Shown here piece by piece: positions 2,144-47,731 of a DNA stretch of 48,591 nt. The DNA comes from a virus, in the UHGV virus genome UHGV-0185643, one strand, 5' to 3'. The notes beneath the pieces are model-generated. The model did no database searches. It was not told the origin of the DNA and worked only from the letters and a program-made list of their open reading frames with translations. Position 1 is the first letter of the stretch, and the number at the start of each line of letters is the position of its first letter. Position numbers and translations under genes: made by a program.

Positions 2144-3700
2144 TCAATTTTGCTGGCTACCTTTCAGCGTCTCAATCACATTCTTCAGGGAATTGAGTTC
2201 AGACATCTGTTCCTTCATCGCTCTGCCCATATAAACCATAGCGCATGCCATATCGGCCATAATGACATTATTATCAAGGGCAAGGGTATCGTCTTTGAGA
2301 CCAACCTCAATCTGATGGTCAACATATTCGTTACCGGACTCATCCACACCAACAACGTCCTCAAAAACAGGTCCACCAGGCACTATCTTTACGTACTGCG
2401 GATCAACTTTAGTCAGATCCTGGGCAATAAGGCCAAAACGCTGTGTATCCGACCCCTTATACTTAAACATGGTCGGTAACCACTGCATGACACGGTCGAA
2501 ACTGTCTTTCCCGTCCCGATATTGGATATCTTCTTTTAGATCGCGGTCTGATGTCGCATTCTTGGCGAACACGTACGATCCCTGCCAGTTTGACCCGGAT
2601 TCGTTCCATACGTCAGTAGTGATATCACCAGACTGAGGATTGAATCTGAACATCCTGTGATATCTGGCATCGCCCATAAAATGTAAGACGCCATGTGGCC
2701 AGCCATTGGCACCATTAGAAATGAGTCCCAGTGACAGACGAGTACTCCACCCACCCGATGCAGAAGAACCACCAGAAACGATTGGAGCCCAGCCACCATC
2801 ATTTCCACCAACAATGGCGGACCAGTAAGGGGTGGTCCATGGACCATCAACATCCCCCCAGCCACCCGATCCGCACTGTCCCCAGAAACCACGTGGTGAT
2901 TGTATAACCCCACCATAACCAGAAAGAAAGTTGAAACGGTATGTGTTCGCTCCTGCTCCAAAACTATTCGCGATTAGAGCAATGGCATCCAGATAATTAC
3001 CCGCACCTCGTATCCCGCCAAACTGATAGAACGAATTCCCCATCCACCCCTGCAGCTGGTTCATCATCCAGCCCAGTTCACCATCAACGTTATTCGACGT
3101 CAGTAAAATATCCTTCTTGACGCCAGCAGTGCTTTTGACGCCTGTACCCGACCCACCCGCCACCGAATTGACGCCACGGGTGCCAAGAACACTACCGAAC
3201 GTAACATCCTGAGAGTTTCCCAAAGTGAGATTATCGCGGGCCGCATTTTTATCAGGCAGATCGGCCAGGGCCTGGCTTTTCAACAAAGCATTATTGATCT
3301 GATCAATAATGCTTTTCCATGATGGTCCTGTAAACTCCGTATTGTCAGGAAGCCTGACAGTAATATTGCCGTTCGCAGAGAATAAAAGTTGCCAGTTCTG
3401 TTTGTCGTAATTCAGCCCCCGCAGCGCCTCCGTGTTCTGCACCACCATTGCGGCAGTAACCATATTCAGCGCCACACGAGGAACAGCTGACCAGGCCGCG
3501 CCAGATTGGGTTGGCCCGGTGTAATTGCTGACCAGCGTCAACGCTGTACCACTTTCCACGGACTTAACCGGAAGCGTATAGGGAACACCACCGACCGTAA
3601 CAACAATAAAATCTCCGGCCGCCACCTCAGTGGTAAACGCGGTCCCGCTGCCAGCGACCGCAGCCGAGTTATTCATCAGGGTTAATGTTCCTGCTGACAT
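2144..3700 (-). CDS. Tail fiber protein with C-terminal S74-type intramolecular chaperone (self-cleaving) domain
   Basis: Gly/Ser-rich repeats; C-terminal SDRDLKEDIQ...RFGLIAQDL...VDPQYV motif typical of endosialidase-chaperone domains; AGGAG RBS upstream of ATG. Confidence 0.75.
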   Translation of the reverse strand: MSAGTLTLMNNSAAVAGSGTAFTTEVAAGDFIVVTVGGVPYTLPVKSVESGTALTLVSNYTGPTQSGAAWSAVPRVALNMVTAAMVVQNTEALRGLNYDKQNWQLLFSANGNITVRLPDNTEFTGPSWKSIIDQINNALLKSQALADLPDKNAARDNLTLGNSQDVTFGSVLGTRGVNSVAGGSGTGVKSTAGVKKDILLTSNNVDGELGWMMNQLQGWMGNSFYQFGGIRGAGNYLDAIALIANSFGAGANTYRFNFLSGYGGVIQSPRGFWGQCGSGGWGDVDGPWTTPYWSAIVGGNDGGWAPIVSGGSSASGGWSTRLSLGLISNGANGWPHGVLHFMGDARYHRMFRFNPQSGDITTDVWNESGSNWQGSYVFAKNATSDRDLKEDIQYRDGKDSFDRVMQWLPTMFKYKGSDTQRFGLIAQDLTKVDPQYVKIVPGGPVFEDVVGVDESGNEYVDHQIEVGLKDDTLALDNNVIMADMACAMVYMGRAMKEQMSELNSLKNVIETLKGSQQN

Positions 3701-5096: not shown

Positions 5097-8000
5097 CAGA
5101 ATACCCCTGTTAATTTGCCAATCTGCACGCGGAGAACGCCATTGCCATCTTTAACGCTGTAATTCAGATTGGTCATTTTCGTTGCCCCCTCCCCGGCAAC
5201 AGCCCCATTCATTTCAAACGTTCCGTCTGATTTCATAATGGTGCCTGTTTGTCCCTGAACATAATTAGCGGAGCGCAGTTCGCCAATTTTTGCCAGAGTG
5301 ATTTGACTATACTGAATAAAAGCATCGCTGATAAACACCTGACCATTAATAGAAGCAAACGGAGAATATTGTGTATCACCGCTGCCACTCATCAGGACGA
5401 ACTGATTGGCGTTAAAGCCGACACGGGTGACTACCGGCTTACCCGCTTCGGCCAGCACGGCAATCGACATCCCGGCGTTATACATCACACCGTTTATTCG
5501 AACTCCGGTTTTAAGAGTGTAAATTGCAGATGCCCCGGTCGCATCAACCACGGCGGTGAGCTTATCTTCCAGCGCGGCAGTCACATCATTGAACTGCGCC
5601 TGCACCTGCGTCGACATTTCAGCCATGGCTTTATCGACCTGCGCAATGGTCGTTTTAACCACCAGAATATCCGCGCGTACCTCGCCGTACTGCGCCCACT
5701 GGTGTTCCACGGTTGCATGGTTGGCCAGCGCGTTCTGCAATGCGGCTTCGAGATTGGTATCAATGTCGCCAGTCAGGCGGTCACCGTCGGCAGATGTCAG
5801 GAAGTCATCAGCAATATCGCCCAGGTAGTCGTCAGCATTCGCATTAGATTCACCACGAACCCAGTCGGTCCAGTCACTCTGATTACCAATGCGATCAACC
5901 AGACGAGCCCGGTACCAGAACTCCTGACCTGCCTTCAAACCCAGTTGGGTATATGTGTGTTGAGGATACGGAACTCCTGCAAGCAGCAGAGGATTATCCC
6001 CATTTCCGTTTGCTGAATACTGCAGTTCGGTCTGGAGAGTATCACCTGTATCCGCCGGAAAGGACCAGTCAGCCTGTATGCCCCAGTTGATTGCTGTGGT
6101 GCGCAGACCAACCGGCTTGGGAACATCCCCAGTACGTCCAGTGAGATGAGTCAGCACAGAAGAGGTCCACAAACTGGACGCTCCACCAGAGTTAATGGCG
6201 CGGACTCTCACGAGGTAATCGCCTGAGAAAATCCCGGCGATCTCTATATTGCGCAAGCCTGTTTCGGGAATGTTGATCCACTCATTATCACCACGTTTCC
6301 ACTGTGCCTGATACGCGACAATATCCGCCTGAGGTTTCCCGTTTTTATCTACTGGCGCATCCCAACTCGCAACCATGGTTGCAATACGCTGCCCCTGCCG
6401 GACCGAGTCGTAACTGCTAATCGCGATATTCGTGGGCTGGCTAACCAGGCCTATCGGTAACAGACTAATCGGCGGCGTATCCAGCCGGGCGTTGTTATCA
6501 ACGGCATCGTACTTAGCCCCGTTGTACTCTGCACCGGTGATACTGTAGGTGTTCTCTTCATCGTTAAATGTCAGATTGGTTACACGGAAATACTGGAGGC
6601 GCAACTGGCCTGCATCGATAACAAAAATGGCATTAGGTTGTGGCTCAGCGGTAAAGGCAGTAGCCAGTATCAGTTGCTGGCCGTTAACCGCCTGAATGGT
6701 TCTGCTCTCAACGGTACCGCCCAGGGTACGAATCATCAGCGTATCACCCGCCACCGCACTCGTGCCGCGATCGGTAGTTACTGACTTCAACCCTGCATCG
6801 TAATCAGTAATACGTCCACCATAGACACGCCCAGACAGCCGCTCATCTGCAAACGCAAATACGGTCCCCGGCACATAAGCGAAGCCATCGAGTCCCGTCT
6901 GGACAGTGATAATACGGTCCAGAGAATTGGAGTACACTGCCCAACCACCCCGGCGCTGAGCTTCGCTTTCACGTGTGCAGCCAATCGCGGTTAGCTGAGT
7001 CTGCTTAAACTTGAACTGCTTAACCAGATCGGGAAACATCACTGCAGTAGTGCGATCCTGATAGTGGTTATCCGGGTCACTAAAGTTAATCAGCGCTGAG
7101 CTATAGCGATTCTTTTCACTGCCGCTGGAATAGGTTGGTTTCCCGACCACAGAGGCACGGGTGAGGATCTGAAGTTTTGACGTATCCGCAGGCATATCAG
7201 AGACAACATTGAACATGTTGTTGCCCCAGAAAGTCATTCCGTTGAAGCCCGCGGCAATATCTTTAATCACCTGCCAGGCATCAGCCTGGGACTGGATGTA
7301 AACGTCAAACATGAAGCGTGGCTCGGTAACGCTTCCGCCTTTCCCGTCGGGTACCTTCTGGTCGCAGCGCTGGGCGATGCGATAGAGCTCCCACTTATCG
7401 AGCATTTCTGGCGTCACGCGGCGCCCAAGACCGAAGCGCGGCTCAGTCACAACATCGAACCAAATCCACGCCGGGTTATTCGTCCAGCCCCATTTAAACG
7501 TCCCGTCCCATGTTCCGCTATAAGTCCGCGCTATTGGATCATAGTTCGAAGGGATTCGGATGATGCGCCCCTTCGGCATGCAGGAAATCTTAGGGATGTT
7601 GTTGAATGACTTTGCGTTAAAGGACACGTACAGCAGCGCTGTGTGTGGATATCGTAGGCGAGCATCGATCACCTCAGTAATCGCTTGCACCTGCGTTTTG
7701 TTCTGCAGCATCTGGCTGGTGCTGTCATCGGTGTCACGCACCACTCGAATTTGCCAGCCAGTGCTGGCTTTGGGAAGATTAATACGGTGGGTTAGTTCAT
7801 AGAGCGAACTGAGCTTCTCTGTGACGGTTTTAGTCATGACTGTCGAGTAAGCGCCACCGTCCACCGCAAGGTCAATATGGTACTGAACCGTGGTGCCGAC
7901 AATATCCCCATCGTTTTCCTGCTGCTGTAACCCAGGGATGCCAATACGAACCAGCACCGCGTCAATCTGGGTGTTACTCAGTGCGCGGGTCCATGGTGTG

Positions 8001-10467: not shown

Positions 10468-10818
10468 TCAGGCATAGACGCCATAGGCGCGCTTAATCGT
10501 GAATGTCAGCTCAGCGAATTTGCTGCTGAGTTGGTTTTTACGCACCGAATCGGTCACGACGCGATACAGACCCATCTCCTCGCCCGGCGGCGTGATGACG
10601 AATGCTTTAACGGTATGTGCCAGAAGGAAGTCACGAACAGTATTCACTTCTGAGTCAGCGCCCACATGCTTCATCGGTATCTGAATCGCCGTGGAATTAA
10701 TGCCGTTCTCAGCCACCTGCTCGTAGCCATCACCAAACTGCGCCGAGCGCACCGTTTGACTGTATTCGACAGCACCCGCGCCGAGTTGCGAGTGCCAGTT
10801 GTAGGTATCAACTGCCAT
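10468..10818 (-). CDS. M: Minor tail protein M
   Basis: 116 aa protein in the lambda M position. Confidence 0.75.
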   Translation of the reverse strand: MAVDTYNWHSQLGAGAVEYSQTVRSAQFGDGYEQVAENGINSTAIQIPMKHVGADSEVNTVRDFLLAHTVKAFVITPPGEEMGLYRVVTDSVRKNQLSSKFAELTFTIKRAYGVYA

Positions 10819-10829
10819 ATATACTCCAT

Positions 10830-10853
10830 AAAAAAAACCCAGCCTGAGCTGGG
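10830..10853 (-). terminator. Intrinsic-terminator-like hairpin plus U-run directly upstream of M, insulating the tail operon from the inserted moron
   Basis: Stem CCCAGC / GCTGGG with 4-nt loop followed on the minus strand by a U8 run. Confidence 0.6.
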
Positions 10854-11011
10854 TTAAACATTAGGTTATTGATTAAGCTGATGAAAAATTAACCTGAAAT
10901 AACATCCTTGAAAAAAGAATTAGTTACTTCACACATATAAAATGATGAAATATGCGACACTCCGTCAATATTTTTATCCATCATAGCTAACCAATTCACA
11001 GGGATAGTTTA

Positions 11012-12625
11012 ATGAATATTGTGCATTATGCAGCCATTGGAGCTGTAGCTTTCGTAGTTGTTCTAACAATTTTGGTGATAAACATCATTAAATTAAAGTC
11101 AGCCAAGGCTGATGCAGCAGAAAAGGCGGCAAAACTTGAGCGTTACGCGTCAATCACCAATGCTGAAACAGAAGCTGAACGAATCGTGAATGCAGCTAAG
11201 CAAACCGCAGAAGAGTTAATTATTGATTCGCAGAATAACCTTGACGAGGCAAAAGCTGAAGCAGCCAACACTATTGCAGCCAGTGAAAAAGATGCAAGAT
11301 CTATAACACAGCGTGCGGAGGATATTCTATCAGATGCGCGTTTAGCAGCTAAGCGAATGAACGCAGAGGCGCTGACCGCTGTAGAAACACAAAGAGTCAA
11401 GCGTGCAGAAATTGAAAAACAGATTGATGAATTGCGTAAATCCTATCGTGAGAAAAAAATCACTTACGATGAGCTGACGGAAGCCCTGTCAATTTATAAA
11501 GATGATATGGAATTTGCTGACATGGGGTTCTATGCACCACACTTCGATTTTGATACCTCGGCTAGTTTTCAGGATGCGATCAAGGCATGTCGCGAACGGC
11601 AAAAAAATCTGCTACGTGACAAAACTGAATTTGGCGCAATACATTGCCCTACTGAATGGACGGTTGGCGGCTCTAAAAGTGAAGGTCGGAAAATGACCAC
11701 TCGCGGCATTCAGATGACAGCACGTGCATTCAATGGTGAGTGTGATGCAGCTATTGCAAACTGCACATTTAAAAACGTTTATCAAATGGAGCAAAGAATT
11801 TATAAAGCCTTTGATGCCTTGAATAAGATGAATGAGGTTAACCAGATTTACATCAATCGTGCTTTTTTAGATTTGAAGCTGGATGAACTTCGACTTACAC
11901 ATGAATATCGTTTGAAAAAACAAGAAGAACGAGAAGAACAACGTGAAATCCGCGCTCAGATGGCTGAGGAGAAGCGAGCTCAAGCCGAAATTGATCGTGC
12001 ACTTCGAGAGGCTGAAGATGAAGAACGCCGCGCCCAAAAAGCGTTGGATAAAGCCCGAAAAGAAATGGAATCGAAGCTAGCCCAAATGACAGCTGAGCAA
12101 GTTGAGAAACACCAAGCGAAGGTATCCGAATTAGAACATGCCTTAGAAGAGGCATTGTTGAAAGGCCAAAAAGCTCTTTCTATGGCTCAACAAACTAAAC
12201 GCGGCCACGTGTACGTTATCTCTAATATTGGTTCGTTTGGTGATGATGTTTTTAAAATAGGAATGACACGTCGACTTGACCCTCAAGATCGAGTGGATGA
12301 ACTGGGTAGTGCATCAGTCCCATTCCTGTTCGATGTTCATGCAATGATTTTCAGTGAAGATGCACCAACAATGGAAAACATGCTCCACCAGCGTTTCAAT
12401 GAGCAACGCACTAACCTAGTTAATAAGCGTAAAGAGTTTTTCAATGTAAAATTAAGCGATATCAAAGATGCTGTGTTTGAGATCGCAGGTAAAGATGTAG
12501 ATTTTATCGAAACAGCAACTGCTCAGCATTATTATGAAACAAAGGCAATTCGTAAGCAGAAAGCGGATATCATTTCAGTTGTTCCTCAAGAGGAAAAACT
12601 ACCTAAATTTGCGGACGCAATATAA
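11012..12625 (+). CDS. Membrane-anchored coiled-coil protein (537 aa) with C-terminal T5orf172/GIY-YIG-like (MUG113-type) domain; candidate defence or exclusion effector
   Basis: N-terminal hydrophobic helix IGAVAFVVVLTILVINII; long charged heptad-like segments; C-terminal GHVYVISNIGSFGDDVFKIGMTRRLDPQDRVDEL...EFFNV motif; AGGGA RBS; transcribed against the tail operon; AT-rich. Confidence 0.6.
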   Translation: MNIVHYAAIGAVAFVVVLTILVINIIKLKSAKADAAEKAAKLERYASITNAETEAERIVNAAKQTAEELIIDSQNNLDEAKAEAANTIAASEKDARSITQRAEDILSDARLAAKRMNAEALTAVETQRVKRAEIEKQIDELRKSYREKKITYDELTEALSIYKDDMEFADMGFYAPHFDFDTSASFQDAIKACRERQKNLLRDKTEFGAIHCPTEWTVGGSKSEGRKMTTRGIQMTARAFNGECDAAIANCTFKNVYQMEQRIYKAFDALNKMNEVNQIYINRAFLDLKLDELRLTHEYRLKKQEEREEQREIRAQMAEEKRAQAEIDRALREAEDEERRAQKALDKARKEMESKLAQMTAEQVEKHQAKVSELEHALEEALLKGQKALSMAQQTKRGHVYVISNIGSFGDDVFKIGMTRRLDPQDRVDELGSASVPFLFDVHAMIFSEDAPTMENMLHQRFNEQRTNLVNKRKEFFNVKLSDIKDAVFEIAGKDVDFIETATAQHYYETKAIRKQKADIISVVPQEEKLPKFADAI

Positions 12626-12643
12626 CATTTCAATGACAAATTT

Positions 12644-12670
12644 AAGGGCGGTTTTTAATCGCCCTTTTAT
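12644..12670. terminator. Bidirectional intrinsic terminator between the convergent moron genes
   Basis: Stem AAGGGCG / CGCCCTT with 9-nt loop, T-rich on both sides. Confidence 0.65.
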
Positions 12671-12685
12671 GTTAAAAGTCATTAG

Positions 12686-13168
12686 TTACATGTTTTTGTA
12701 ATAGCCGACTTTAGAATCAAAGTCCTGTTTTGCGAGTGGCGTTTGGCTTGTCACATAAGTCTCCCAGGAGCTGTACGCCTCTACGAGCGCGCGCTTTTCT
12801 TCTGCATCCTTAGTACTCGATTTCATTATTTCAAACACTCCAGAAGCATTCTCTTTGCGTTTGTTTTTTCTGTTAGCGCCGCAAGTCGCTATTGCATCGG
12901 CTACAGAATTATTCCACCCAACCAACTGCAGGATCTCCATTCTCTTTTGAATCACGAACTGATCCGCAGACGCATTCCGTGCCTGAGTCGACAGGTATTC
13001 AGCAAACTCCATTTTGTTCATTGGCACTTTGGAGACTGACTCAATATTTACGTCACACTTCGAAAGCTCATCATACTTGGCTTGTTTTTGCGCGTTGTTG
13101 ACTGGACCATTGCCCGCGCACGCAGAAAGAGCCATTGCTAACACCACTGTCGTGAAGACCTTTTTCAT
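12686..13168 (-). CDS. Lipoprotein (160 aa, lipobox LSAC), moron partner convergent with the T5orf172-like gene
   Basis: Signal peptide MKKVFTTVVLAMALSAC; start chosen at the second ATG for better SD spacing. Confidence 0.55.
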   Translation of the reverse strand: MKKVFTTVVLAMALSACAGNGPVNNAQKQAKYDELSKCDVNIESVSKVPMNKMEFAEYLSTQARNASADQFVIQKRMEILQLVGWNNSVADAIATCGANRKNKRKENASGVFEIMKSSTKDAEEKRALVEAYSSWETYVTSQTPLAKQDFDSKVGYYKNM

Positions 13169-13268
13169 TATCATCCCCTGATTAGTATGGTTTTGACATA
13201 ATAACCATGGGAGGCATCGGTGTAACCAGGTACGGGTTATATTGCCATATCAGAATTTACGACGATGC

Positions 13269-16200
13269 CTATTTTGGCTGGAACTGCCTACCAAGGAGGC
13301 CATCACTTCGAGTTGCCCTCATAAGGATCTCCGTCACCTTAGTTTCTATTTCCTTCCCTAACGCCCGCGCTGCTGCGCCTCCGTCTCCAGATGTGTTAGA
13401 TGTTGCATTGCCCTTATTATCGACATAAATATCAATGTTGACCTGCGGCTGGGCTCCACCTCCACCCTGCGCCCTTACACCAAGTCTTCCAGCAGAATCC
13501 CGTGTCAGCGGCATGATGGCCTCTTCACCTGCCTCAGCAAAAACTCCACCTTTGGCGAATTTAGATGCCCCTTGGAAGGTGAAATACTGAGGAGAGTCGT
13601 AGACGCCATTCACGTACTTACTGAGGCCCGGAGACTCATAGACTCCGCCTTTTGCGTTCGGGGTGAATGATGGAACAGCGAATGATTGCCCGCCCCCAGC
13701 CGAAGCAACAGAGCCACCACTGATCCACCCCATTGCGGCCTGCACTGCATAGGCAACCATGAGGCGGTTCGTCACATCAAGGATCATCTTGAGCATGGAT
13801 TTGCCGAATTCTTTAACTGATGCTTTGCCAGTGGTCATCAGCTCAGTCAGCATGTCGCCCAAGCCAGTCAGCGTGGAGCTGGCGACGTTTTTCACAGCAT
13901 CGTATGTGTTAGTGGCAGCGTCCAGATACTCATTCCATCCGCTTAAAGCACCAGCCTTCCAATCACCGCGAAGCTTATCCTCTTCGGCGTAGTAGTTACG
14001 AAGGGCTGCCAGCTCTTTCTCATAGCCAGCATCTTCTAGCTTTCCGCCACCATTCAGCCATCCCTGACGAAGCTGCGCTTCTTCGGTCATTCGCTGAGCC
14101 ATACGACTGCTTAAACCTGACCCGCTACGTAACGCCTCAGACTTTTCAGCCATCTGCGTTACATACTTATTAGCCTGCTGTGCCAGGCCGTTAATCTTCT
14201 GCTGGGCCTCTACTTCTTTGTTCTTCTGATCCACAACCTTCGCGGCATTCAGAATGGCTTCTCGGCTAGACAGGAGTGACTTCTCCTGCGCGGTCAGTGC
14301 GCGGGTTTTGGCAGCCTCGTCCAGTTCCACAAAGCGTGACTGTTGTTTGCTGAATTCGGTATTTTTGGCGTGAATATCGCCGGTCTGACGCAGGGTTTCG
14401 AGGGTTTCCGTTAAGGTCCTTGCCTGCGCCCGGTAGTTCTCCAGGGTGCGATCGCCAGCATCGAGTGTTGCTTTCGCTTCTTTTGTCTTTTTGGCTGAGT
14501 CTTCTGCAAGCTTCGAGACTGCGTTTCTCGACTCGCGGCTCGAGCCCCCTTCCCCTTTAACGCTGGCACCTCGCGCTTCGGCTTCATAGCTTGCCTGTGC
14601 ATTAGGCGCAGTGACCCGCTTCCAGAGTTCATCGTAGCGTTTTTTGTTCGCTGCGATCTCTTTGTCAGCTTCCGCCCCGGCCTTTTTCATAGCCTCAACA
14701 TCCATGCCGAGGAAGTCGGTTATTGCTCCGCCGCCCGGGATTTTCTCAGCCCATCCTGCAATGGTCCCAGTAAACTTGGAATCCAGAGAGGTAATGTTGA
14801 GGAACAGGTCCTTTATCGAAGCTTCAACCAGGTTGAAAATATCGATCACCTGATTTCCCCAGGCGCGGACAGTAATCCCGATATCATCAAAGGAGTCAGA
14901 TGCTGTTTTCTTCAACCACTGCCAGGACTGCCCAATATTGTCGGTGGCCCTGTTGGTCTCTTCTGCGCGCTTTGCCATAACGCCAGCAAACAGGTTGATG
15001 GCTTCGTTTACCGCCGCCTGCTCCCCCTTCTGCTTACGCAACTGGATGATGTGCTTCATCATGGCTTCATCAACAAAGCCATACTGCTCATTCAGGCTGG
15101 CCAGCCCTTTCACCGGGTCGCTGACAATCTTGCCGAAGTCGGACATCGCCGTTTTGGTGTCACTGCCAGCCTTGCCCATCAGAGTGATGGACGTGGCGAT
15201 CTGCTTCATCTGGCTGGCGGTATATTTACCAGTGTCATTCAGCGTAACCAGCGTATCTACGGTGGAACTGATGGATGTATTCGTCTTGCCGGCCACCTCT
15301 TCAGCAGCCTCATTGAGCTTCTGCATTGAGGAAAAACCAGCGCCACCCATCATGATGACCGATCGCGCCACTTGGTCGAATTGCTCGGATGAACTATATG
15401 CCGCAGTAGCCAGCAGACCAACCGTACCGACCAGACCTGCCAGCGCAATAGTGGTTGGGTTAATCATCCCAGCCATGCTGCGGATGTATTCGCCGACGCC
15501 AGTGAGCGCCCCCTGAACCCCGCCAAACTGGTCTTTAATCTGCCCGCCCTGTTGCAGCAGGATCAGGAAAGGAGACTGCCCACCAGCCAGCTGCGTGGCG
15601 ATATCGGTGAACTGTGCTGGTAGTGTGCGCATTGCTGCGCTGTACTGGCCGACAGATATACCGGCACGACGCGCCGCAGCCTCCTGGCGAGATAGTGCCT
15701 CTGGCAGCACGTCAGCCACGCCAGACAGGCGCTCACGCGTCTGGTTCAGGATTGTATTGAAGTGCTCGAACTGCGCGCCGTTAATACGCCCCGCTTCGAA
15801 GTGTGCCACCAACTGCGCATGCTGCTCATCCAGCGAGTTAAACGCGCGGATAGTCGGGTCGATAGAGCCCAGCAGGTTTTTCAGTGCTGCTGATTGTTTC
15901 TCGGCAGCCTGGGTCGCGGCCAGTTCTGCCTGGGCGCGCGCCGCTGCTTCTCCGGTATCCGTCAGTTTTAACCGGGTCTCGTCCAGGATTTTGTTGTAGT
16001 GCTGAAAATCATCAGTATCCAGGAAACCTTTGGTCTGGAAGTTGCGCAGTGCGGCCTGTTGTTCATCCAGCCGGTTCAGCGCCTTGTTAACTGGATCGAT
16101 ATTCTCCAGCAGCCCCTTCAGCGCGATCTGCTGTTCCTTGATACCTTCAGTGCCCTGTTTCGCAGACTCAGCACCAGCACGGAATACGCTATTAAGGTCA

Positions 16201-16316
16201 TCAGCTTTGCCTACGGCACCCGCCGCGGCTTCACCGAGTTTATCCAGCTCGTTGCTGGCTGTTTTCAGGTCAGAAACATCGGCCCGTAAAGTAATCGAGG
16301 CGATCTGGTCAGTCAT
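13269..16316 (-). CDS. Tail tape measure protein
   Basis: 1015 aa, coiled-coil and Ala/Gly-rich, located between G-T and M. Confidence 0.9.
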   Translation of the reverse strand: MTDQIASITLRADVSDLKTASNELDKLGEAAAGAVGKADDLNSVFRAGAESAKQGTEGIKEQQIALKGLLENIDPVNKALNRLDEQQAALRNFQTKGFLDTDDFQHYNKILDETRLKLTDTGEAAARAQAELAATQAAEKQSAALKNLLGSIDPTIRAFNSLDEQHAQLVAHFEAGRINGAQFEHFNTILNQTRERLSGVADVLPEALSRQEAAARRAGISVGQYSAAMRTLPAQFTDIATQLAGGQSPFLILLQQGGQIKDQFGGVQGALTGVGEYIRSMAGMINPTTIALAGLVGTVGLLATAAYSSSEQFDQVARSVIMMGGAGFSSMQKLNEAAEEVAGKTNTSISSTVDTLVTLNDTGKYTASQMKQIATSITLMGKAGSDTKTAMSDFGKIVSDPVKGLASLNEQYGFVDEAMMKHIIQLRKQKGEQAAVNEAINLFAGVMAKRAEETNRATDNIGQSWQWLKKTASDSFDDIGITVRAWGNQVIDIFNLVEASIKDLFLNITSLDSKFTGTIAGWAEKIPGGGAITDFLGMDVEAMKKAGAEADKEIAANKKRYDELWKRVTAPNAQASYEAEARGASVKGEGGSSRESRNAVSKLAEDSAKKTKEAKATLDAGDRTLENYRAQARTLTETLETLRQTGDIHAKNTEFSKQQSRFVELDEAAKTRALTAQEKSLLSSREAILNAAKVVDQKNKEVEAQQKINGLAQQANKYVTQMAEKSEALRSGSGLSSRMAQRMTEEAQLRQGWLNGGGKLEDAGYEKELAALRNYYAEEDKLRGDWKAGALSGWNEYLDAATNTYDAVKNVASSTLTGLGDMLTELMTTGKASVKEFGKSMLKMILDVTNRLMVAYAVQAAMGWISGGSVASAGGGQSFAVPSFTPNAKGGVYESPGLSKYVNGVYDSPQYFTFQGASKFAKGGVFAEAGEEAIMPLTRDSAGRLGVRAQGGGGAQPQVNIDIYVDNKGNATSNTSGDGGAAARALGKEIETKVTEILMRATRSDGLLGRQFQPK

Positions 16317-39610: not shown

Positions 39611-40150
39611 TCATACAACCCCCAGCATCAACTGCACCATCTCCATCAGCGGACCGGTTAAGCCAGGGTCAACGCGGTACATCTCCACGATCCCCTCGCT
39701 CAGCTCTTTCAGCTTCTGATGACGCGGCGCATCCATTGCGACAGCTATCTTCGCTTCGCTGGTTTCCTTCTCCATACGTGCCAGGCGAGCCATGATGTTG
39801 TCTTCTGGCAGCAGGCGGTTGCGGTATTCAATCGGCAGAACTGCGAGGATTGCGGGAGTCAGCTGGCGAACGTTCTCGCGGTACCGCTCGCTGTTGAAAT
39901 GGTTATCGAGGAAGCGGAAAAGCTTCTGGCGCTTTCGGCAGAGATCATCAGGGAAAGTGATGTCGTCACCACCCTGCGCCTGGTACTCTTCGATGATCAG
40001 AGCAGTAACTACGTCCTGACCATCAGCACCAGCCCAGGAGCGAACCGCATCACGAATATCTTCGTGGCTCGGCCCCCTGCGTGCTTGAGCGCGATTTATC
40101 ATTACCCCTTGAGTAATATCGCTATCATTCTGATAAGTAAGTGTCTGCAT
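39611..40150 (-). CDS. YdaT-like regulator (CII functional analogue of Rac-type prophages)
   Basis: Segment RQLTPAILAVLPIEYRNRL resembles Rac YdaT (…IPAILAILPRELRHRL…); position after the Cro-like gene. Confidence 0.55.
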   Translation of the reverse strand: MQTLTYQNDSDITQGVMINRAQARRGPSHEDIRDAVRSWAGADGQDVVTALIIEEYQAQGGDDITFPDDLCRKRQKLFRFLDNHFNSERYRENVRQLTPAILAVLPIEYRNRLLPEDNIMARLARMEKETSEAKIAVAMDAPRHQKLKELSEGIVEMYRVDPGLTGPLMEMVQLMLGVV

Positions 40151-40380: not shown

Positions 40381-40486
40381 ATGCAACCCTCGGATATTGA
40401 AATTCAAGATTACAACATGAAAAAAATATTTTCAATCCTGAATGAAAATAATCTTTGCAATGCGGAATGAAAGGCTACCTTGTAGA

Positions 40487-40906
40487 ATGGAAGACATGAA
40501 AAAAGCACCCAACGAAGCGTTTGCCTACCGACTTCAGCTCGTCAGAGATGAGTTCGGTTGGAACATGTCAGATATAGCCCGGAGAGCGATGGTTACTCCC
40601 CAGGCAGTGCAGCAATGGGCCAAAGGAGAGTCAGCTCCAAGAGGTGAGCGCTTAAAGCGTCTCGCTGCAGCTGCTGGAAAGCCCGAACATTGGTTTTTCA
40701 TGCCACCAAATACCGAAGGTGAAGATGCTGGGGTGCATGAGCCACCGCGGCAACTGGATGAAAAAGAAATCGCACTGCTTACGTTGTTCAATCAAATGCC
40801 AGAAGCTGAAAAGCTACGTTTGATAGTGCATGCCAAGGCTACCTTGAGAGAGCTTGATCTCCTCAAAGATGATGTGTCTAGCATCATTCAAAGTATTCAG
40901 AAGTAA
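40487..40906 (+). CDS. Prophage repressor, XRE-type HTH, no S24 peptidase domain
   Basis: HTH MSDIARRAMVTPQAVQQWAKGE; about 140 aa; start uncertain (40442, 40487 or 40496). Confidence 0.6.
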   Translation: MEDMKKAPNEAFAYRLQLVRDEFGWNMSDIARRAMVTPQAVQQWAKGESAPRGERLKRLAAAAGKPEHWFFMPPNTEGEDAGVHEPPRQLDEKEIALLTLFNQMPEAEKLRLIVHAKATLRELDLLKDDVSSIIQSIQK

Positions 40907-41805: not shown

Positions 41806-44736
41806 ATGGAATTTCCATATGTAGTTAAAGCCACACAAAAGTCGGGAAAGCCTGATGCTTTTGTCTGGTTCACTGCAAAAACTGAGGCTCGCGCCAACCT
41901 GATGCTGGACGTTGCTCTGGAAGACGCTGGCATCGAAACCGGCCGTGGTAAGGACTACGCCAAGCCTATCCGCACTGACTTCCCAGTTGTTGATGACCTT
42001 CCGGAAGAAGGTGAAGTTGATTTCACCTGGTGTGATCGTTACGAACTGCAGGACGACGGGCGCATCTGGCTGCCAAAGGCCGCTGGCGACGTTGTCACCA
42101 CTATCCCTGCCGATGTAAAAAATACCGATGAAGTAGCGACATCTGACGAGAATGTATCGTTAGAAAACCGCACTCCAGCAGTCCGTTTTGCCTTCCATCT
42201 GATGAGCGATAAATACCAGACTCACGTCACTAAAGAGCAGCAGCTGGCTGCCAGCGAAATGTCACTGGACGAAAGCAATACCTATCTCCAGAACTTGCTG
42301 CAGGTTAAAAATGATGTTCCTGAAATTGGCGAACTCAGTCTGAATGCTGAGTGGAAAATGATTCAGGCGATTAAAGACATCTTCGAACAGGGTGAAGAGC
42401 ATGAACCTGAAGTGATCGCTGCTTTCATGTCTGACTGGGTGAACGCAGAAGCAGGTGATCGCAATCAACTGGTTGAAGACTGGCGCAGTGGAAAGTTTCC
42501 TCTGCTCAAAACTGAAACCACCAGCGTTGGTGATGAAGTCGGTCCCGAAGAACAATCTCAGCAGCCAGAGCAGCCGAACCTGATCGTCGTAGCCACCCTG
42601 CCATTCCGTCAGCGCGTACTGGCTCAGTTCATCGGTAATGGTGAATATCTCTATCACGTCGATGCCGCGCAGAAAAAAGAGATTGTCCGCCTTGAGATGG
42701 ACACTGATGACACGTACATCCAGAACCTGCTGCTGGCTGCTGAGAATGTGGAGGCATTCAAAAAAGCCATTGAGCACGATATTCATAAAGTCGTGAATGC
42801 CGTTAAGAAAGTCTTCCCTGTCGACGGTAAGAAACCGGAGCTGGCAACAGTTATCCAGTTCCTGACGGTGTGGTTCAAAACTGAATACATCGATCGCGGC
42901 CTGCTGGTCAAGGAATGGCAGAAAGGCAATCGTGTAACAACCATTAATCGCACACCTTCAGGTGCGAACGCCGGCGGCGGCATTGTCTCTGACCGAAAAT
43001 TCCCGCAAACCATTCTCGGTCTGGAGCATGAGATTGCTCTGGCGTTACGTGCCCGTGACCGCGAATTTGATATTTACAACGTCCCTCTGGATATAGAACT
43101 ACAGGCAAACTCCATCATGAATAAGATGGACGATCCCGAATGGCTGGCGACTCGAGAGAGATTCGTTTCAATTCCTGGTGGCCTGGACTACTCACGTGCC
43201 TGCATCATCGCAACAGTAAAAACCACACCAGAGGGGCTTTATGCTGATCCTGTAAAACACCAAGAATATTTGAATAGAGTACTTACGGAAACCGACCACG
43301 CCAACCCAGATCCATTGCTCGTTGATATAGCCTGCGGTCGTTCGTCTATGCCTGTACCTATGAAACAGGAAAAAGTAACGGCCGAAGAGGTAAACAAAAT
43401 TCTTGCAGCTTCCCGCGGAGAATATGTCGAGGGGATTAGTGACCCTACAGACCCGAAATGGATCACAGAAGACCTCGCATTAACCGCCCAACAAATAGAT
43501 GACCGTTCACCACTTAATAAGGAAACCACCAGCAATGTGCAGATGGAAGAAACTGTCAGTGATGAAGAGCAGTCAGGCGAAAGCAGTCTGGAAACTGGTG
43601 AAGAGTCACATACCGGCCAGCAAGCCGATGTAAACCAGAATGCGGATTCTGTCGCCCAAAATAGCGATTTTGTAAACCAAACCGAACCGGTTGCGGCACA
43701 AATCAAGCCAGAATCTCATTCTGACGAACCGGCTGTTGTGTACCCTGCTTACTTTGAGCCAGGCCGCTATGAAGGATTGTCGAACGAGGTTTATCACGCA
43801 GCGAACGGTATCAGCTCAACCCAGGTGAAAGACGCACGTGTCAGCCTGATGTTCTATCACGGCCGTCACGTGACCAAGACTATCCGTCGCGAAAGCAGCG
43901 AGGCGCTGACGTTAGGTAGCCTGGCGCACACCCTGGCCCTGGAGCCCGAAAAGCTCCACGAAGAGTTTGCGGTATTCCCAGGTATTCCGGCTGAGGCGTT
44001 TACCACCACCGACTCCATGAAGGCGTTCATTCGAGAATTTAACGCGGATAAGCCAAAGGCCGAGCAACTGAAGCTCACCGGTAAGAAAGAAGAACTTCAG
44101 GCGGCGATACGCGCGGTCAGCCCGGAGGCCATTTTCGCTGATGAATTTGAGCAGCAATGGCGTGATAGCGTTGATGGGAAAACCATCCTGTCCAGAGAAC
44201 AACTGACGCTGGCCACGGCAATTCAGCAAGCCCTACTGAATCATGAATCAGCCGGGAAACTGCTGCGCCATCCTTCCCGTTCAGTGGAAACCAGTTATTT
44301 CGGGATGGACGACGAAACCGGTCTGGAAGTCCGTGTGCGCCCTGACCTTGAGGTTGAAATCAACGGCGTTCGTATCGGTGTTGACCTGAAGACGATCAGC
44401 ATGGGACGCGTTAAGCAAGACGGTTTGCGCGCCAAACTGCACCGGGAAATCATCGACCGCGACTACCACCTCAGCGCTGGCATGTATTGCTCCGTTGCCG
44501 ACTTTGATCAGTTCTTCTGGATCTTCGTCAACAAAGACGAGGGCTACCACTGGGTGGCGGTAATTGAGGCATCGGAAGATTTGCTCGACCTCGGGCTGCT
44601 GGAGTATCAGCGCACCATGCGTGCACTCGCAAATGCGTATGACACCGATTGCTGGTCTGCACCGATAACCGAAGACTACACCGACGAACTGAACGACTTC
44701 GACCTGCGCTGCCTTGAAGCGCTGCGTCTGGCTTAA
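41806..44736 (+). CDS. recE: RecE-like exonuclease VIII (976 aa)
   Basis: Large protein immediately upstream of a RecT-like gene; acidic linker; C-terminal nuclease-like region; GAGGA RBS. Confidence 0.65.
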   Translation: MEFPYVVKATQKSGKPDAFVWFTAKTEARANLMLDVALEDAGIETGRGKDYAKPIRTDFPVVDDLPEEGEVDFTWCDRYELQDDGRIWLPKAAGDVVTTIPADVKNTDEVATSDENVSLENRTPAVRFAFHLMSDKYQTHVTKEQQLAASEMSLDESNTYLQNLLQVKNDVPEIGELSLNAEWKMIQAIKDIFEQGEEHEPEVIAAFMSDWVNAEAGDRNQLVEDWRSGKFPLLKTETTSVGDEVGPEEQSQQPEQPNLIVVATLPFRQRVLAQFIGNGEYLYHVDAAQKKEIVRLEMDTDDTYIQNLLLAAENVEAFKKAIEHDIHKVVNAVKKVFPVDGKKPELATVIQFLTVWFKTEYIDRGLLVKEWQKGNRVTTINRTPSGANAGGGIVSDRKFPQTILGLEHEIALALRARDREFDIYNVPLDIELQANSIMNKMDDPEWLATRERFVSIPGGLDYSRACIIATVKTTPEGLYADPVKHQEYLNRVLTETDHANPDPLLVDIACGRSSMPVPMKQEKVTAEEVNKILAASRGEYVEGISDPTDPKWITEDLALTAQQIDDRSPLNKETTSNVQMEETVSDEEQSGESSLETGEESHTGQQADVNQNADSVAQNSDFVNQTEPVAAQIKPESHSDEPAVVYPAYFEPGRYEGLSNEVYHAANGISSTQVKDARVSLMFYHGRHVTKTIRRESSEALTLGSLAHTLALEPEKLHEEFAVFPGIPAEAFTTTDSMKAFIREFNADKPKAEQLKLTGKKEELQAAIRAVSPEAIFADEFEQQWRDSVDGKTILSREQLTLATAIQQALLNHESAGKLLRHPSRSVETSYFGMDDETGLEVRVRPDLEVEINGVRIGVDLKTISMGRVKQDGLRAKLHREIIDRDYHLSAGMYCSVADFDQFFWIFVNKDEGYHWVAVIEASEDLLDLGLLEYQRTMRALANAYDTDCWSAPITEDYTDELNDFDLRCLEALRLA

Positions 44737-44750
44737 TGGAGGATTTGACC

Positions 44751-45791
44751 ATGCAAAATACCAACATCATTACGACCGAGCAGGCACCAAACACCATTTC
44801 CGCCAGCAACGCTGTGTTCAACGTGCAGGCACTCGGCCAGCTTACCTCTTTTGCTGAATTGATGGCGCAGTCTGTCGTCACCGTCCCCAAACACCTTGCG
44901 GGGAAACCCGCCGACTGTATGGCTATCGTCATGCAGGCTATGCAGTGGGGAATGAACCCATATGCAGTTGCCCAGAAAACACACCTGGTCAACGGTGTGC
45001 TGGGTTACGAAGCGCAGCTGGTTAACGCAGTGATCTCCAGTTCCAGCGCCATTATTGGCCGCTTCCATTACGAGTACGGCGGTGACTGGGAGAAGATCGC
45101 CGGGAAAAAAGACGGTCGTGATGAATTAGGTCTGTTTATCCGGGTTGGCGCCGTACTGCGCGGAGAAGAAGAAATTACCTGGGGCGAGCCAATCTACCTG
45201 GCAGATATCACCATACGTAACTCGCCACTGTGGAAAACAGCGCCGAAGCAGCAGATCGCTTATCTGGCAGTGAAGTACTGGGCTCGCCTGTACTGCCCAG
45301 AAGTCATCCTCGGCGTCTACAGTCCAGATGAAGTTGAGCCACGCACTGAGAAAGAGATTAACCCGGCGCCGCAACGCGTTAGCCTGGCCGATATTTCAGG
45401 TGACACCGTCACAACCACGCAAAGCGCACAGGAATCGTCGGTAAATATCGACTCTCTTGCCGATGATTTCCGCGAACGAATCGATGCCGCTCAGGATGTT
45501 GATAGTGCAAAAGCACTGCGCGCTGATATCGAAAGCGCGAAGGCCACACTCGGATCAGCCCTGTTCACCGAGCTGAAGAATAAGGCAGTGAAACGCTATT
45601 ACCTGGTTGATTCACGTAACAAGGTTGAGGCCGCGATCAACTCCCTGCCGTCTCCGGACGAACCGGATGCAGCTGAACGGTTTGGGGAAGTTGAGCGAGT
45701 TCTTGCAACTGCGAAACGTCATCTGGGCGACGAGCTGCACGATCAGTTCAGCATCACCCTGGCGGATATGAAACCGGAATACGTTGGCTAA
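44751..45791 (+). CDS. recT: RecT-family single-strand annealing recombinase
   Basis: Coupled to the recE stop (TAATG overlap; GGAGG SD before ATG at 44751); RecT-like core. Confidence 0.65.
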   Translation: MQNTNIITTEQAPNTISASNAVFNVQALGQLTSFAELMAQSVVTVPKHLAGKPADCMAIVMQAMQWGMNPYAVAQKTHLVNGVLGYEAQLVNAVISSSSAIIGRFHYEYGGDWEKIAGKKDGRDELGLFIRVGAVLRGEEEITWGEPIYLADITIRNSPLWKTAPKQQIAYLAVKYWARLYCPEVILGVYSPDEVEPRTEKEINPAPQRVSLADISGDTVTTTQSAQESSVNIDSLADDFRERIDAAQDVDSAKALRADIESAKATLGSALFTELKNKAVKRYYLVDSRNKVEAAINSLPSPDEPDAAERFGEVERVLATAKRHLGDELHDQFSITLADMKPEYVG

Positions 45792-46118: not shown

Positions 46119-46319
46119 ATGGATGATATTTTGCTGACGTCAGACCTGACCAGTCGATACAAAATCTCACGTAAAACCCTTTGGTCATGGCAAAGCACAG
46201 ACACGATGCCGCGGGGTTTTGCGAAGCCGTTCCCCGCCCCGGACTTCCCCGGTAACCCTAACCGCTGGAAGTCGGAGTCAGTCAAAGAGTGGGAAGGTGT
46301 GAAACAGCCAATTAACTGA
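46119..46319 (+). CDS. AlpA-family excisionase / transcriptional regulator
   Basis: Motif [20 protein letters not shown]; adjacent to the integrase gene; GGAGA RBS. Confidence 0.7.
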
Positions 46320-47505
46320 ACGGCTCACCGATGATGTTTTCAAGATGGCTCTGCCAAACGTGGAGCCAGTGTTTTTGATCATCGATGTAGTCATGCAGGT
46401 TATAGTGCGCCATCACGCCAACCATTTGGTGACCAAGTAACTTTTCAATCACATGCGGCGGACAGCCAAGTTCTGAAAGATTTGTTGCGATTGTTCTTCT
46501 CATATCATGGAGAGACCAGGGCTCCATGCCGGATTCTGACCAAATATACCTGGCGTAGTTCGAAGCAACTGGCGGATGAACCGGGACGTCTTTAATTTCC
46601 CCATCCAATAAGCGCTGTGAAGTGACTAAATGCTTTGTGTTGATCTTCTCAAGATGATTTTTTACCAGTCCCACCGCAGCATCAGAAAGAGCCCTTCTCA
46701 TGTGCACTCGCGTTTTGTAACTTCCAGCAGGAACTATCCATTCATTTTCATCCAGCTTGAACCATGACCTTTCGCTTAACCGAATCTCTGCCGTCCTACA
46801 GCCGGTCAACATAATAAATTTCACAAGAAACACGGACTCTATGGACATGCGGTTTTGCAGCCACCGATAAATAGCCACCAGCTCACGATCATCCAAGCGC
46901 CGCGTTCTCTTTTTCGGTTTTTGGCCAACGTCAGTGGGTAGCAATCCCTCGAGCGGATTGGTCGATATTACGCCTCGGTTAATACAGAACCTGAATGAGC
47001 GTTTGCACAGCGAAAGCATATAATGAGCCATCACCCTGCTTTCAATCTGATCAAAAACATCTATCCAGTGCCTTTTTGTCGAATTGTCGACTTTGACGTT
47101 TCGCATCGGTTCGGCGATATGCTTGGCAAATACCAACTGATAATAACCTGTCTTTGTCAGTTGATTAGCGATGCAGTGTTTCTCGATCCAATAATTGAAT
47201 GCTTCCGATACGGCCATGGAACCTTCGCGGGTCAATTTCTCCAGCTTTACTTGCTCTCGGGGATCGAGTCCTTCAGTAAGCCAGATTCTGAATTGCTGAC
47301 GCCTTTCCCTTGCCTGAGCAATACTCATTGCTGGATAATCGCCGACATTGAGTTTTACAGCTTTGCCTGCCCATCTGTACCGGTAGAAGAAAGAGACCTT
47401 TCCGGCCAGACTGATTCTTGCGTTGAGTCCGTGAGAATCTGAAATAATTTCGATATCATCGCGTTTCTTGCCAAGGGCCTTCCTGAGCTTTGTGTCAGTG
47501 ATCAT
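46312..47505 (-). CDS. int: Tyrosine integrase (P4/CP4-57-like, N-terminal arm-binding domain)
   Basis: N-terminal [10 protein letters not shown]...FFYRYRW arm-binding-type domain; C-terminal catalytic motifs HDMRRT ... LGHQ ... HY; start trimmed to an internal Met. Confidence 0.85.
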
Positions 47506-47731
47506 TGAATAGGTACACATTTGGCTTTTGAGTACGCAAAAGTGTACACAAAACTCATTGCTCAAAGATACCCACAATGTAACACTTGTACTCGGAGTGT
47601 GATAATTGGAAGGCTGAAAGGCAGGCGGCAGAAGGGTTCAACGTAACAGAACGTTTTTATGCGAAATTCTTCGAAATGGGCTGAATGACAATACAAAAAA
47701 GTATTTTAAAAACAAAACAAAAACAGACATT

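Follow-up and report, generated by a model that had tools for sequence, protein, structure and literature searches.

A predicted SNIPE-family defence nuclease carried as cargo in the tail operon of an HK639-like lambdoid prophage

A functional selection against lambda-vir yielded PD-lambda-1 (Vassallo et al. 2022, PMC9519451), which Saxton et al. 2025 (bioRxiv 10.1101/2025.11.03.685801) renamed SNIPE. The latter study showed that E. coli SNIPE, for which one cloned gene is sufficient, spans the inner membrane once, with a periplasmic N-terminus and a cytoplasmic remainder, as determined by PhoA/LacZ mapping. The E414A substitution abolished defence, which showed that the GIY-YIG nuclease domain is essential, and the larger globular domain around DUF4041 was found to bind both DNA and the tape-measure protein. 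E. coli SNIPE targets siphoviruses only. It associates with ManYZ in the case of lambda, was linked to the tape-measure protein by proximity and crosslinking, and cuts phage DNA during injection, not after; prophage induction was unaffected. Lambda was blocked only by the membrane-anchored form, and the protein lacking its transmembrane (TM) helix was a soluble nuclease toxic to the host. W257R was among the substitutions that strengthened defence against Bas14-18 (10.1101/2025.11.03.685801). Here we analyze a homologue of this protein in the virus genome UHGV-0185643, a stretch of 48,591 nucleotides (nt) referred to below as the window. Its gene lies in a segment of about 2.45 kb between the tail tape-measure gene and the minor tail gene M, which holds two convergent open reading frames (ORFs); the second ORF encodes a lipoprotein.

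The gene of 537 amino acids (aa) very probably encodes a defence nuclease of the SNIPE (PD-lambda-1) family that is carried as prophage cargo and would, by homology, work as the E. coli protein does. Its features are given below.

11012-12625, + strand: gene of the SNIPE/PD-lambda-1 homologue, 537 aa, identified using PADLOC, PHROGs and Pfam; transcribed against the tail operon
11027-11089, + strand: predicted N-terminal TM anchor, residues ~6-26, with a maximum Kyte-Doolittle 19-residue mean of 2.88
11723-11878, + strand: DUF4041 (PF13250) core, residues 238-289, Pfam E 1.2e-18, 67.2 bits against a cut-off of 27
12203-12481, + strand: GIY-YIG-type nuclease domain (T5orf172/MUG113), residues 398-490, above the Pfam gathering scores

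By profile searches, the 537-aa protein is a diverged member of the known SNIPE defence family, whose mechanism has already been published. The PADLOC PD-Lambda-1 model PDLC03977 matched residues 1-536 over model positions 1-495 of 496 (E 5e-201), a second PD-Lambda-1 model, PDLC03976, gave an E of 2e-178, and PHROGs assigned the protein to phrog_1847 (E 8e-160). In precomputed annotation, PF13250 now carries the name 'SNIPE'. An earlier reading of the window made from the sequence alone had held that no named system could be assigned, and the PADLOC match supplies the name. The profile search which that reading had proposed placed DUF4041, MUG113 and T5orf172 all above their gathering scores. 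PADLOC gave no match of the protein to Zorya or Kiwa, and the Pfam scan found no NUMOD or helix-turn-helix (HTH) module in it.

The architecture described in the sequence-only reading, a TM anchor, two coiled coils and a T5orf172/GIY-YIG motif, was borne out by hydropathy, composition and Pfam. Residues 6-26 are the only strongly hydrophobic segment and are followed by K27, K29 and K32; by the positive-inside rule and the PhoA/LacZ mapping of the E. coli protein, the window protein would have an N-out/C-in topology. Two stretches free of Pro and Gly, residues 31-150 and 300-390, consist of 60-87% charged residues, Gln and Ala, which fits two helical or coiled-coil regions. These stretches account for the weak matches to DivIVA, SMC and Rad50, sub-threshold coiled-coil matches of this kind being all that an NCBIfam scan returned. 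Likewise, a sequence search of the PDB gave chance coiled-coil matches only (E >0.1) and found no solved SNIPE structure. An AlphaFold2 model of residues 385-537 (predicted local distance difference test, pLDDT, 72) showed the order beta-beta-alpha-beta-alpha, as in GIY-YIG domains.

The window protein was then compared with the E. coli protein. Among the homologues from the protein search, P0104, which is 500 aa long, comes from E. coli and belongs to a cluster of 975 sequences. The SNIPE paper names nine residues (E223, N250, L253, W257, E264, K305, I308, T319 and E414), and because it has every one of them, P0104 is the characterised E. coli SNIPE or a near-identical copy of it. The two proteins are 49% identical in an alignment over residues 11-537 of the window protein, and identity is high from residue 130 on. 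E414 of P0104 aligns with E455 of the window protein, which lies in the motif TMENMLH (codon at 12374-12376) and is invariant in 22 homologues. The sequence-only reading had highlighted the Glu of an 'EFF' motif instead, so the residue matching the required E414 is a different one. Both proteins show the same order of TM helix, coiled coil, DUF4041, long helical linker and C-terminal GIY-YIG domain, and each is encoded by a single gene of a lambdoid prophage. The reference has 500 aa, whereas the window protein has 537 and carries about 40 extra N-terminal coiled-coil residues; in the clade of the window protein this coiled-coil insertion occupies residues 88-125 (nt ~11273-11386) of the N-terminal 'adapter'. 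At the position of W257 the window protein has R294 (nt 11891-11893, just past the DUF4041 match), and at that of E264 it has L301. R294 is thus a natural occurrence of the residue that broadened defence in the E. coli protein, which makes the window protein a ready variant for testing control of target range by DUF4041 and the adapter. The gene positions also differ, since the reference lies in an early region, between replication gene P and a Bro-N antirepressor gene, and the window gene lies at the tape-measure/M junction.

From the E. coli protein we infer expression, topology, target range and DNA cleavage for the window protein as follows. The protein would be made in the lysogen, its N-terminal helix would insert in the inner membrane, and a short N-terminus would remain outside with the remainder in the cytoplasm. 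The DUF4041 domain would engage the tape-measure protein and the DNA of another, injecting siphovirus, and the C-terminal GIY-YIG domain, with Glu455 as the catalytic residue, would then cut the entering DNA. Tethered to the membrane, the nuclease would be kept off the chromosome. The cell and the resident prophage would survive, so that this would be direct defence and not abortive infection. Such defence distinguishes self from non-self by location at the injection site, and the principle would now extend to a diverged, Citrobacter-type variant.

Four observations weigh against this account. The N-terminal region, which in E. coli is ManYZ-associated, is poorly conserved and contains the extra coiled-coil residues; ManYZ association is known only for E. 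coli SNIPE, and the adapter is diverged in the window protein. An identity of 49% would leave room for a different target range. A promoter scan upstream of the SNIPE gene gave no convincing promoter. Finally, late transcription of the tail operon runs antisense to the gene, whose expression is deduced.

The distribution of the island genes was examined in 80 viral contigs with an M protein that shares 84-100% identity with that of the window. The tape-measure end, M, SNIPE and the lipoprotein were mapped in each locus, all ORFs in the junction were clustered (C numbers below), and the junction could be scored in 78 loci. In one locus, L014, the genes for M, SNIPE and the lipoprotein and the last 250 residues of the tape-measure protein were identical to those of the window. 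SNIPE was present in five of the 78 junctions, three times with the lipoprotein of the window (cluster C2), once with another lipoprotein (C25) and C5, and once with a secreted protein (C26) and an FtsK-gamma-domain protein. It was absent from the other 73, which shows that the insert is not a constant structural part of the related tail operons. Together with the defence-family match, the presence of SNIPE in so few related junctions upheld the earlier view of a phage-defence module on acquired cargo.

These counts bear on the proposal that the island proteins are tail or virion accessories, needed for tail assembly or for injection of the phage's own DNA. The island does sit within the tail operon and adjoins the tape-measure gene. 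However, the SNIPE gene runs opposite to the tail genes and is missing from 73 of 78 operons whose M proteins are at least 84% identical, the content of the slot is interchangeable among unrelated families, and GC content is about 12 points below that of the tail genes. We regard a tail function as scarcely credible. The island is horizontally acquired moron cargo and not tail structure.

The sequence-only reading had also named the lipoprotein as the partner of the 537-aa protein. In a two-gene module of this kind, a lipoprotein acting as outer-membrane sensor or blocker and an inner-membrane nuclease would form one defence or exclusion system. The two genes are adjacent and convergent on a common low-GC island, both products are predicted envelope proteins, and the pair recurs in L002, L014, L019 and L040. 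However, the four loci with both genes are near-identical (92-100% DNA identity, three aligned), so that these occurrences are not independent. C2 was found in 11 of the 78 loci, in eight of them without SNIPE (L041, L042, L063, L069, L072, L086, L087 and L090), and in L063 and L086 it was the only cargo. In phage phi80 a member of the same family lies between I and J. SNIPE, in turn, was without C2 in two junctions, had other neighbours in L003-L006 and L034, and stood alone elsewhere. Across loci its neighbours included C2, C25 with C5, C26 with the FtsK-gamma protein, DUF2545, TIR_2 and housekeeping genes. Since each gene occurs without the other, the partnership is contradicted. The lipoprotein is not the partner of SNIPE and the two distributions are independent; E. 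coli SNIPE, moreover, works as a single cloned gene. A joint system therefore appears improbable.

Outside this lineage, SNIPE homologues 58-80% identical to the window protein occurred in varied settings: as solitary chromosomal genes or islets, at other prophage positions, and in an integrative and conjugative element (ICE). DNA homology among these contexts ended near the ends of the ORF. A megablast search with the island as query, run on isolate phages and 5,426 E. coli genomes, returned no copy of the SNIPE gene, only a morF-like stretch and tail genes. A solitary gene between conserved genes, in many unrelated contexts, with homology that stops almost at the ORF ends, together with a GIY-YIG-type domain, would also be expected of a selfish homing-type endonuclease that propagates itself by cleaving unoccupied sites and offers its host no protection. 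Homing endonucleases are not known to have TM anchors or long coiled coils. The window protein has both, as well as DUF4041, and it matches a defence protein over its full length. In addition, the E. coli protein blocks lambda only when anchored in the membrane and its soluble form is toxic, and neither a target-site duplication nor an intron or intein context was seen at the locus. A homing endonuclease is thus very improbable, even more so than the two-gene module, and a SNIPE-type defence nuclease remains the preferred reading.

Two of these settings deserve description. In Yersinia (L009-L011, SNIPE at 6001-7614), a 73%-identical homologue lies in a conjugative transfer region (TraU, TraG_N, TraC) beside a TIR_2 gene, and in one of the variants a YobI-ATPase gene is also nearby; this ICE site may be a defence hot spot. 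In Klebsiella oxytoca CP130257 (L007, 5389-8084), an 80%-identical SNIPE lies just downstream of a tape-measure gene of a different type, with a DUF2545/zinc-ribbon protein, two Arc-like genes, a P22-type antirepressor and a SocA/Panacea protein as neighbours. In L007, a second tail module, cargo likewise sits behind the tape-measure gene. A systematic linkage of SNIPE to tape-measure genes was considered and rejected: the genes adjoin in two types of tail module, but the E. coli reference gene and further homologues are found at other positions.

The borders of the island and its remaining features are as follows.

10468-10818, - strand: minor tail protein M, 116-aa ORF, 84-100% identical in the 80 viral contigs; flank of the island
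10828-10855, - strand: intrinsic terminator before M, hairpin 10836-10855 plus U8, folding free energy (dG) -13.6 kcal/mol, z -2.9; right border of the hot spot
10856-11011, + strand: AT-rich region 5' of the SNIPE gene, in which the sole promoter-scan match (10995-11022) overlaps the start codon
12644-12666, + strand: intrinsic terminator 3' of the SNIPE gene, between the convergent genes, dG -13.9 kcal/mol, z -3.7, followed by UUUUAUGUU
12686-13168, - strand: lipoprotein gene, 160 aa, ATG 13168 (ORF open from 13174), phi80 MorF/phrog_8179 family
13176-13226, - strand: leader of the first cargo slot, with promoter-like GTTACA-17 nt-TATTAT (13226-13198) and Shine-Dalgarno AGGGGA (13181-13176) ahead of ATG 13168
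13269-16316, - strand: tail tape-measure gene, 1015-aa ORF, closest to the tape-measure protein of phage HK639 (77% identity); left border of the hot spot

In the tail operon, all on the - strand, the tape-measure gene is followed by M and then by L, K, I and J. GC content is 0.54-0.56 in the flanking tail genes and 0.36-0.44 within the segment (0.42 overall), and the ORFs and this drop agree with the low-GC segment that had been described from the letters alone. Relative to loci with the lipoprotein only, DNA homology was broken within 10835-10856 and resumed at 12688, which delimits a SNIPE insertion of about 10856-12687. The - strand terminator lies just 5' of the Shine-Dalgarno sequence of M, is kept in relatives and is annotated as a terminator in HK639. 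The earlier claim of terminators on both sides stood for this site and for the + strand hairpin between the two genes; at the tape-measure border the terminator scan found nothing terminator-like, and a promoter-like site is present there instead. A search of the window against Rfam gave no match. The 12644-12666 hairpin, which is 3' of the lipoprotein gene, has no U-run when read on the - strand. Because the SNIPE gene is on the opposite strand and this U-run is missing, late transcription, and possibly that of the lipoprotein gene, should run antisense through SNIPE. Such read-through could lower SNIPE expression during lytic growth.

The sequence-only reading had taken the tape-measure/M junction to be normally empty in lambda-like phages. 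This applies to HK97, in which H and M are adjacent, and to phi80, but not to the related operons: the junction was occupied in all 78 loci, by 298-4946 bp of DNA with a GC content of 0.40-0.52 that encoded 83 ORF clusters. A leader of about 100 nt (13170-13268 on the - strand of the window, and just past the tape-measure stop codon in L014-L093) has the sequence GGTTACA, 17 nt, TATTAT or TATCAT, and then AAACCATnnTAATCAGGGGATGATnnTG. It is conserved ahead of nine unrelated ORFs (C0, C1, C2, C4, C25, C26, C30, C41 and C70). In every case the product of the first slot is a small protein, either a lipoprotein, a secreted protein or a membrane protein, and comes from one of these nine or from C82. 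Pfam analysis of the 10 slot-1 representatives gave no family for nine of them, and C30 matched a zinc ribbon only. The later slots carry Fic/Doc, a YafO toxin, a Panacea-type antitoxin, P22-type antirepressors with Arc-like repressors, and IS66. Among the carriers of such cargo are L012 (phage HK639, HK639_16 to HK639_18), L016, L023, L024 and L047, and IS66 is found in L018. HK639_18, annotated as 'unknown', is a YafO-family toxin, and in relatives the SocA/Panacea antitoxin has a downstream gene. PADLOC analysis of ten other cargo proteins of the hot spot gave one weak HEPN match and no named system besides SNIPE.

The leader, with its putative promoter, looks like a fixed expression platform for exchangeable cargo. 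We tentatively raise a broader possibility, to which we give well under an even chance: that the junction is a dedicated entry-defence hot spot, in which a leader-driven slot for one of at least ten unrelated, interchangeable envelope proteins is followed by a second slot that gathers SNIPE, Fic/Doc, YafO, Panacea-type modules and antirepressors. The prophage in the window would then stack an outer-membrane or periplasmic lipoprotein on an inner-membrane nuclease whose DUF4041 surface (R294) and longer adapter give it a target range other than that of the E. coli prototype, and the slot-1 proteins would form a reservoir of undescribed superinfection-exclusion proteins. These envelope proteins are in any case a compact candidate set in which to look for new proteins of this type. 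In the searchable literature we found no description of a leader with interchangeable envelope proteins or of SNIPE in a tail-operon hot spot. The leader and its envelope proteins are the least-explored part of the locus, and the main gene needs no new concept.

The lipoprotein was analyzed in the same way. Its start is ATG 13168, which has a properly spaced Shine-Dalgarno sequence. A lipobox, LSAC, is present at Cys17, in agreement with the secreted lipoprotein that had been read at this convergent gene, and Cys38 and Cys96 are also invariant. Under the Lol-avoidance rule, Ala at position +2 directs a lipoprotein to the outer membrane. The residue at +2 is Ala, and the lipoprotein would accordingly go there. 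It matched phrog_8179 (E 1.1e-47, residues 3-162 over model positions 1-159 of 159) and is 61% identical to phi80 morF. The family is small and was found only in Enterobacteriaceae prophages (43 database clusters). The predicted structure is a helical bundle (pLDDT 86.7) with generic, non-specific fold matches. Membership in the Cor family (phrog_1119) was rejected, as the match (E 0.003) covered the signal peptide only, at residues 3-50. The lipoprotein gene belongs to the phi80 MorF family and is a moron in its own right, with its own conserved, promoter-like leader. Phi80 MorF (PHI80_20) shares the lipobox and the conserved Cys pair and is likewise a moron co-oriented with a lambdoid tail operon; its gene lies between I and J, whereas the window gene lies between the tape-measure gene and M. 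A literature search on phi80 morF gave no relevant paper and no reported function. Judging from context and from analogy to Cor, Llp and HK97 gp15, the most plausible role of the lipoprotein would be envelope-level exclusion or host fitness.

By gene content, the window represents an HK639-like lambdoid prophage in which a Rac-like early region is joined to an HK639-like tail module. The host is probably Citrobacter. The window also encodes a YdaT-like protein (39611-40150, - strand), an HTH regulator (40442-40906, + strand), a RecE-like exonuclease (Exonuc_VIII plus a PDDEXK-like domain) with RecT (41806-45791, + strand) and an integrase (46312-47577, - strand). Beyond J are genes for a 162-aa Peptidase_S24 protein, UmuD- or repressor-like (1063-1551, - strand), and a 518-aa tail fibre with a C-terminal S74 intramolecular chaperone (2144-3700, - strand).

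Besides E. coli SNIPE and phi80 MorF, three groups of known systems invite comparison. Zorya and Kiwa also work at the inner membrane, where the phage genome is injected, and Zorya has a nuclease effector; however, both are multi-gene systems that sense envelope perturbation, and neither has homology to the 537-aa protein. The receptor-blocking lipoproteins Cor and Llp are small, prophage-encoded and expressed in lysogens (PMC3594210), which makes them a plausible functional analogy for the lipoprotein slot, but the mature domain of the window lipoprotein is an unrelated helical bundle and the protein is not a member of their family. The third is the HK97 moron gp15 (Cumby et al. 2012; PMC3594210). 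A position of gp15 between H and M was considered and rejected, because H and M are adjacent in the HK97 record and a review places gp15 upstream of the tape-measure gene. It is a small YebO-like protein without a nuclease, unrelated in sequence to the 537-aa protein, and it blocks channel formation or injection without cutting DNA. Nevertheless, gp15, like the predicted SNIPE-family nuclease of the window, is prophage-expressed cargo in a lambdoid tail operon, adjoining the tape-measure gene, and its inner-membrane product blocks the genome entry of siphoviruses in a manner that depends on their tail/tape-measure region (PMC3594210).

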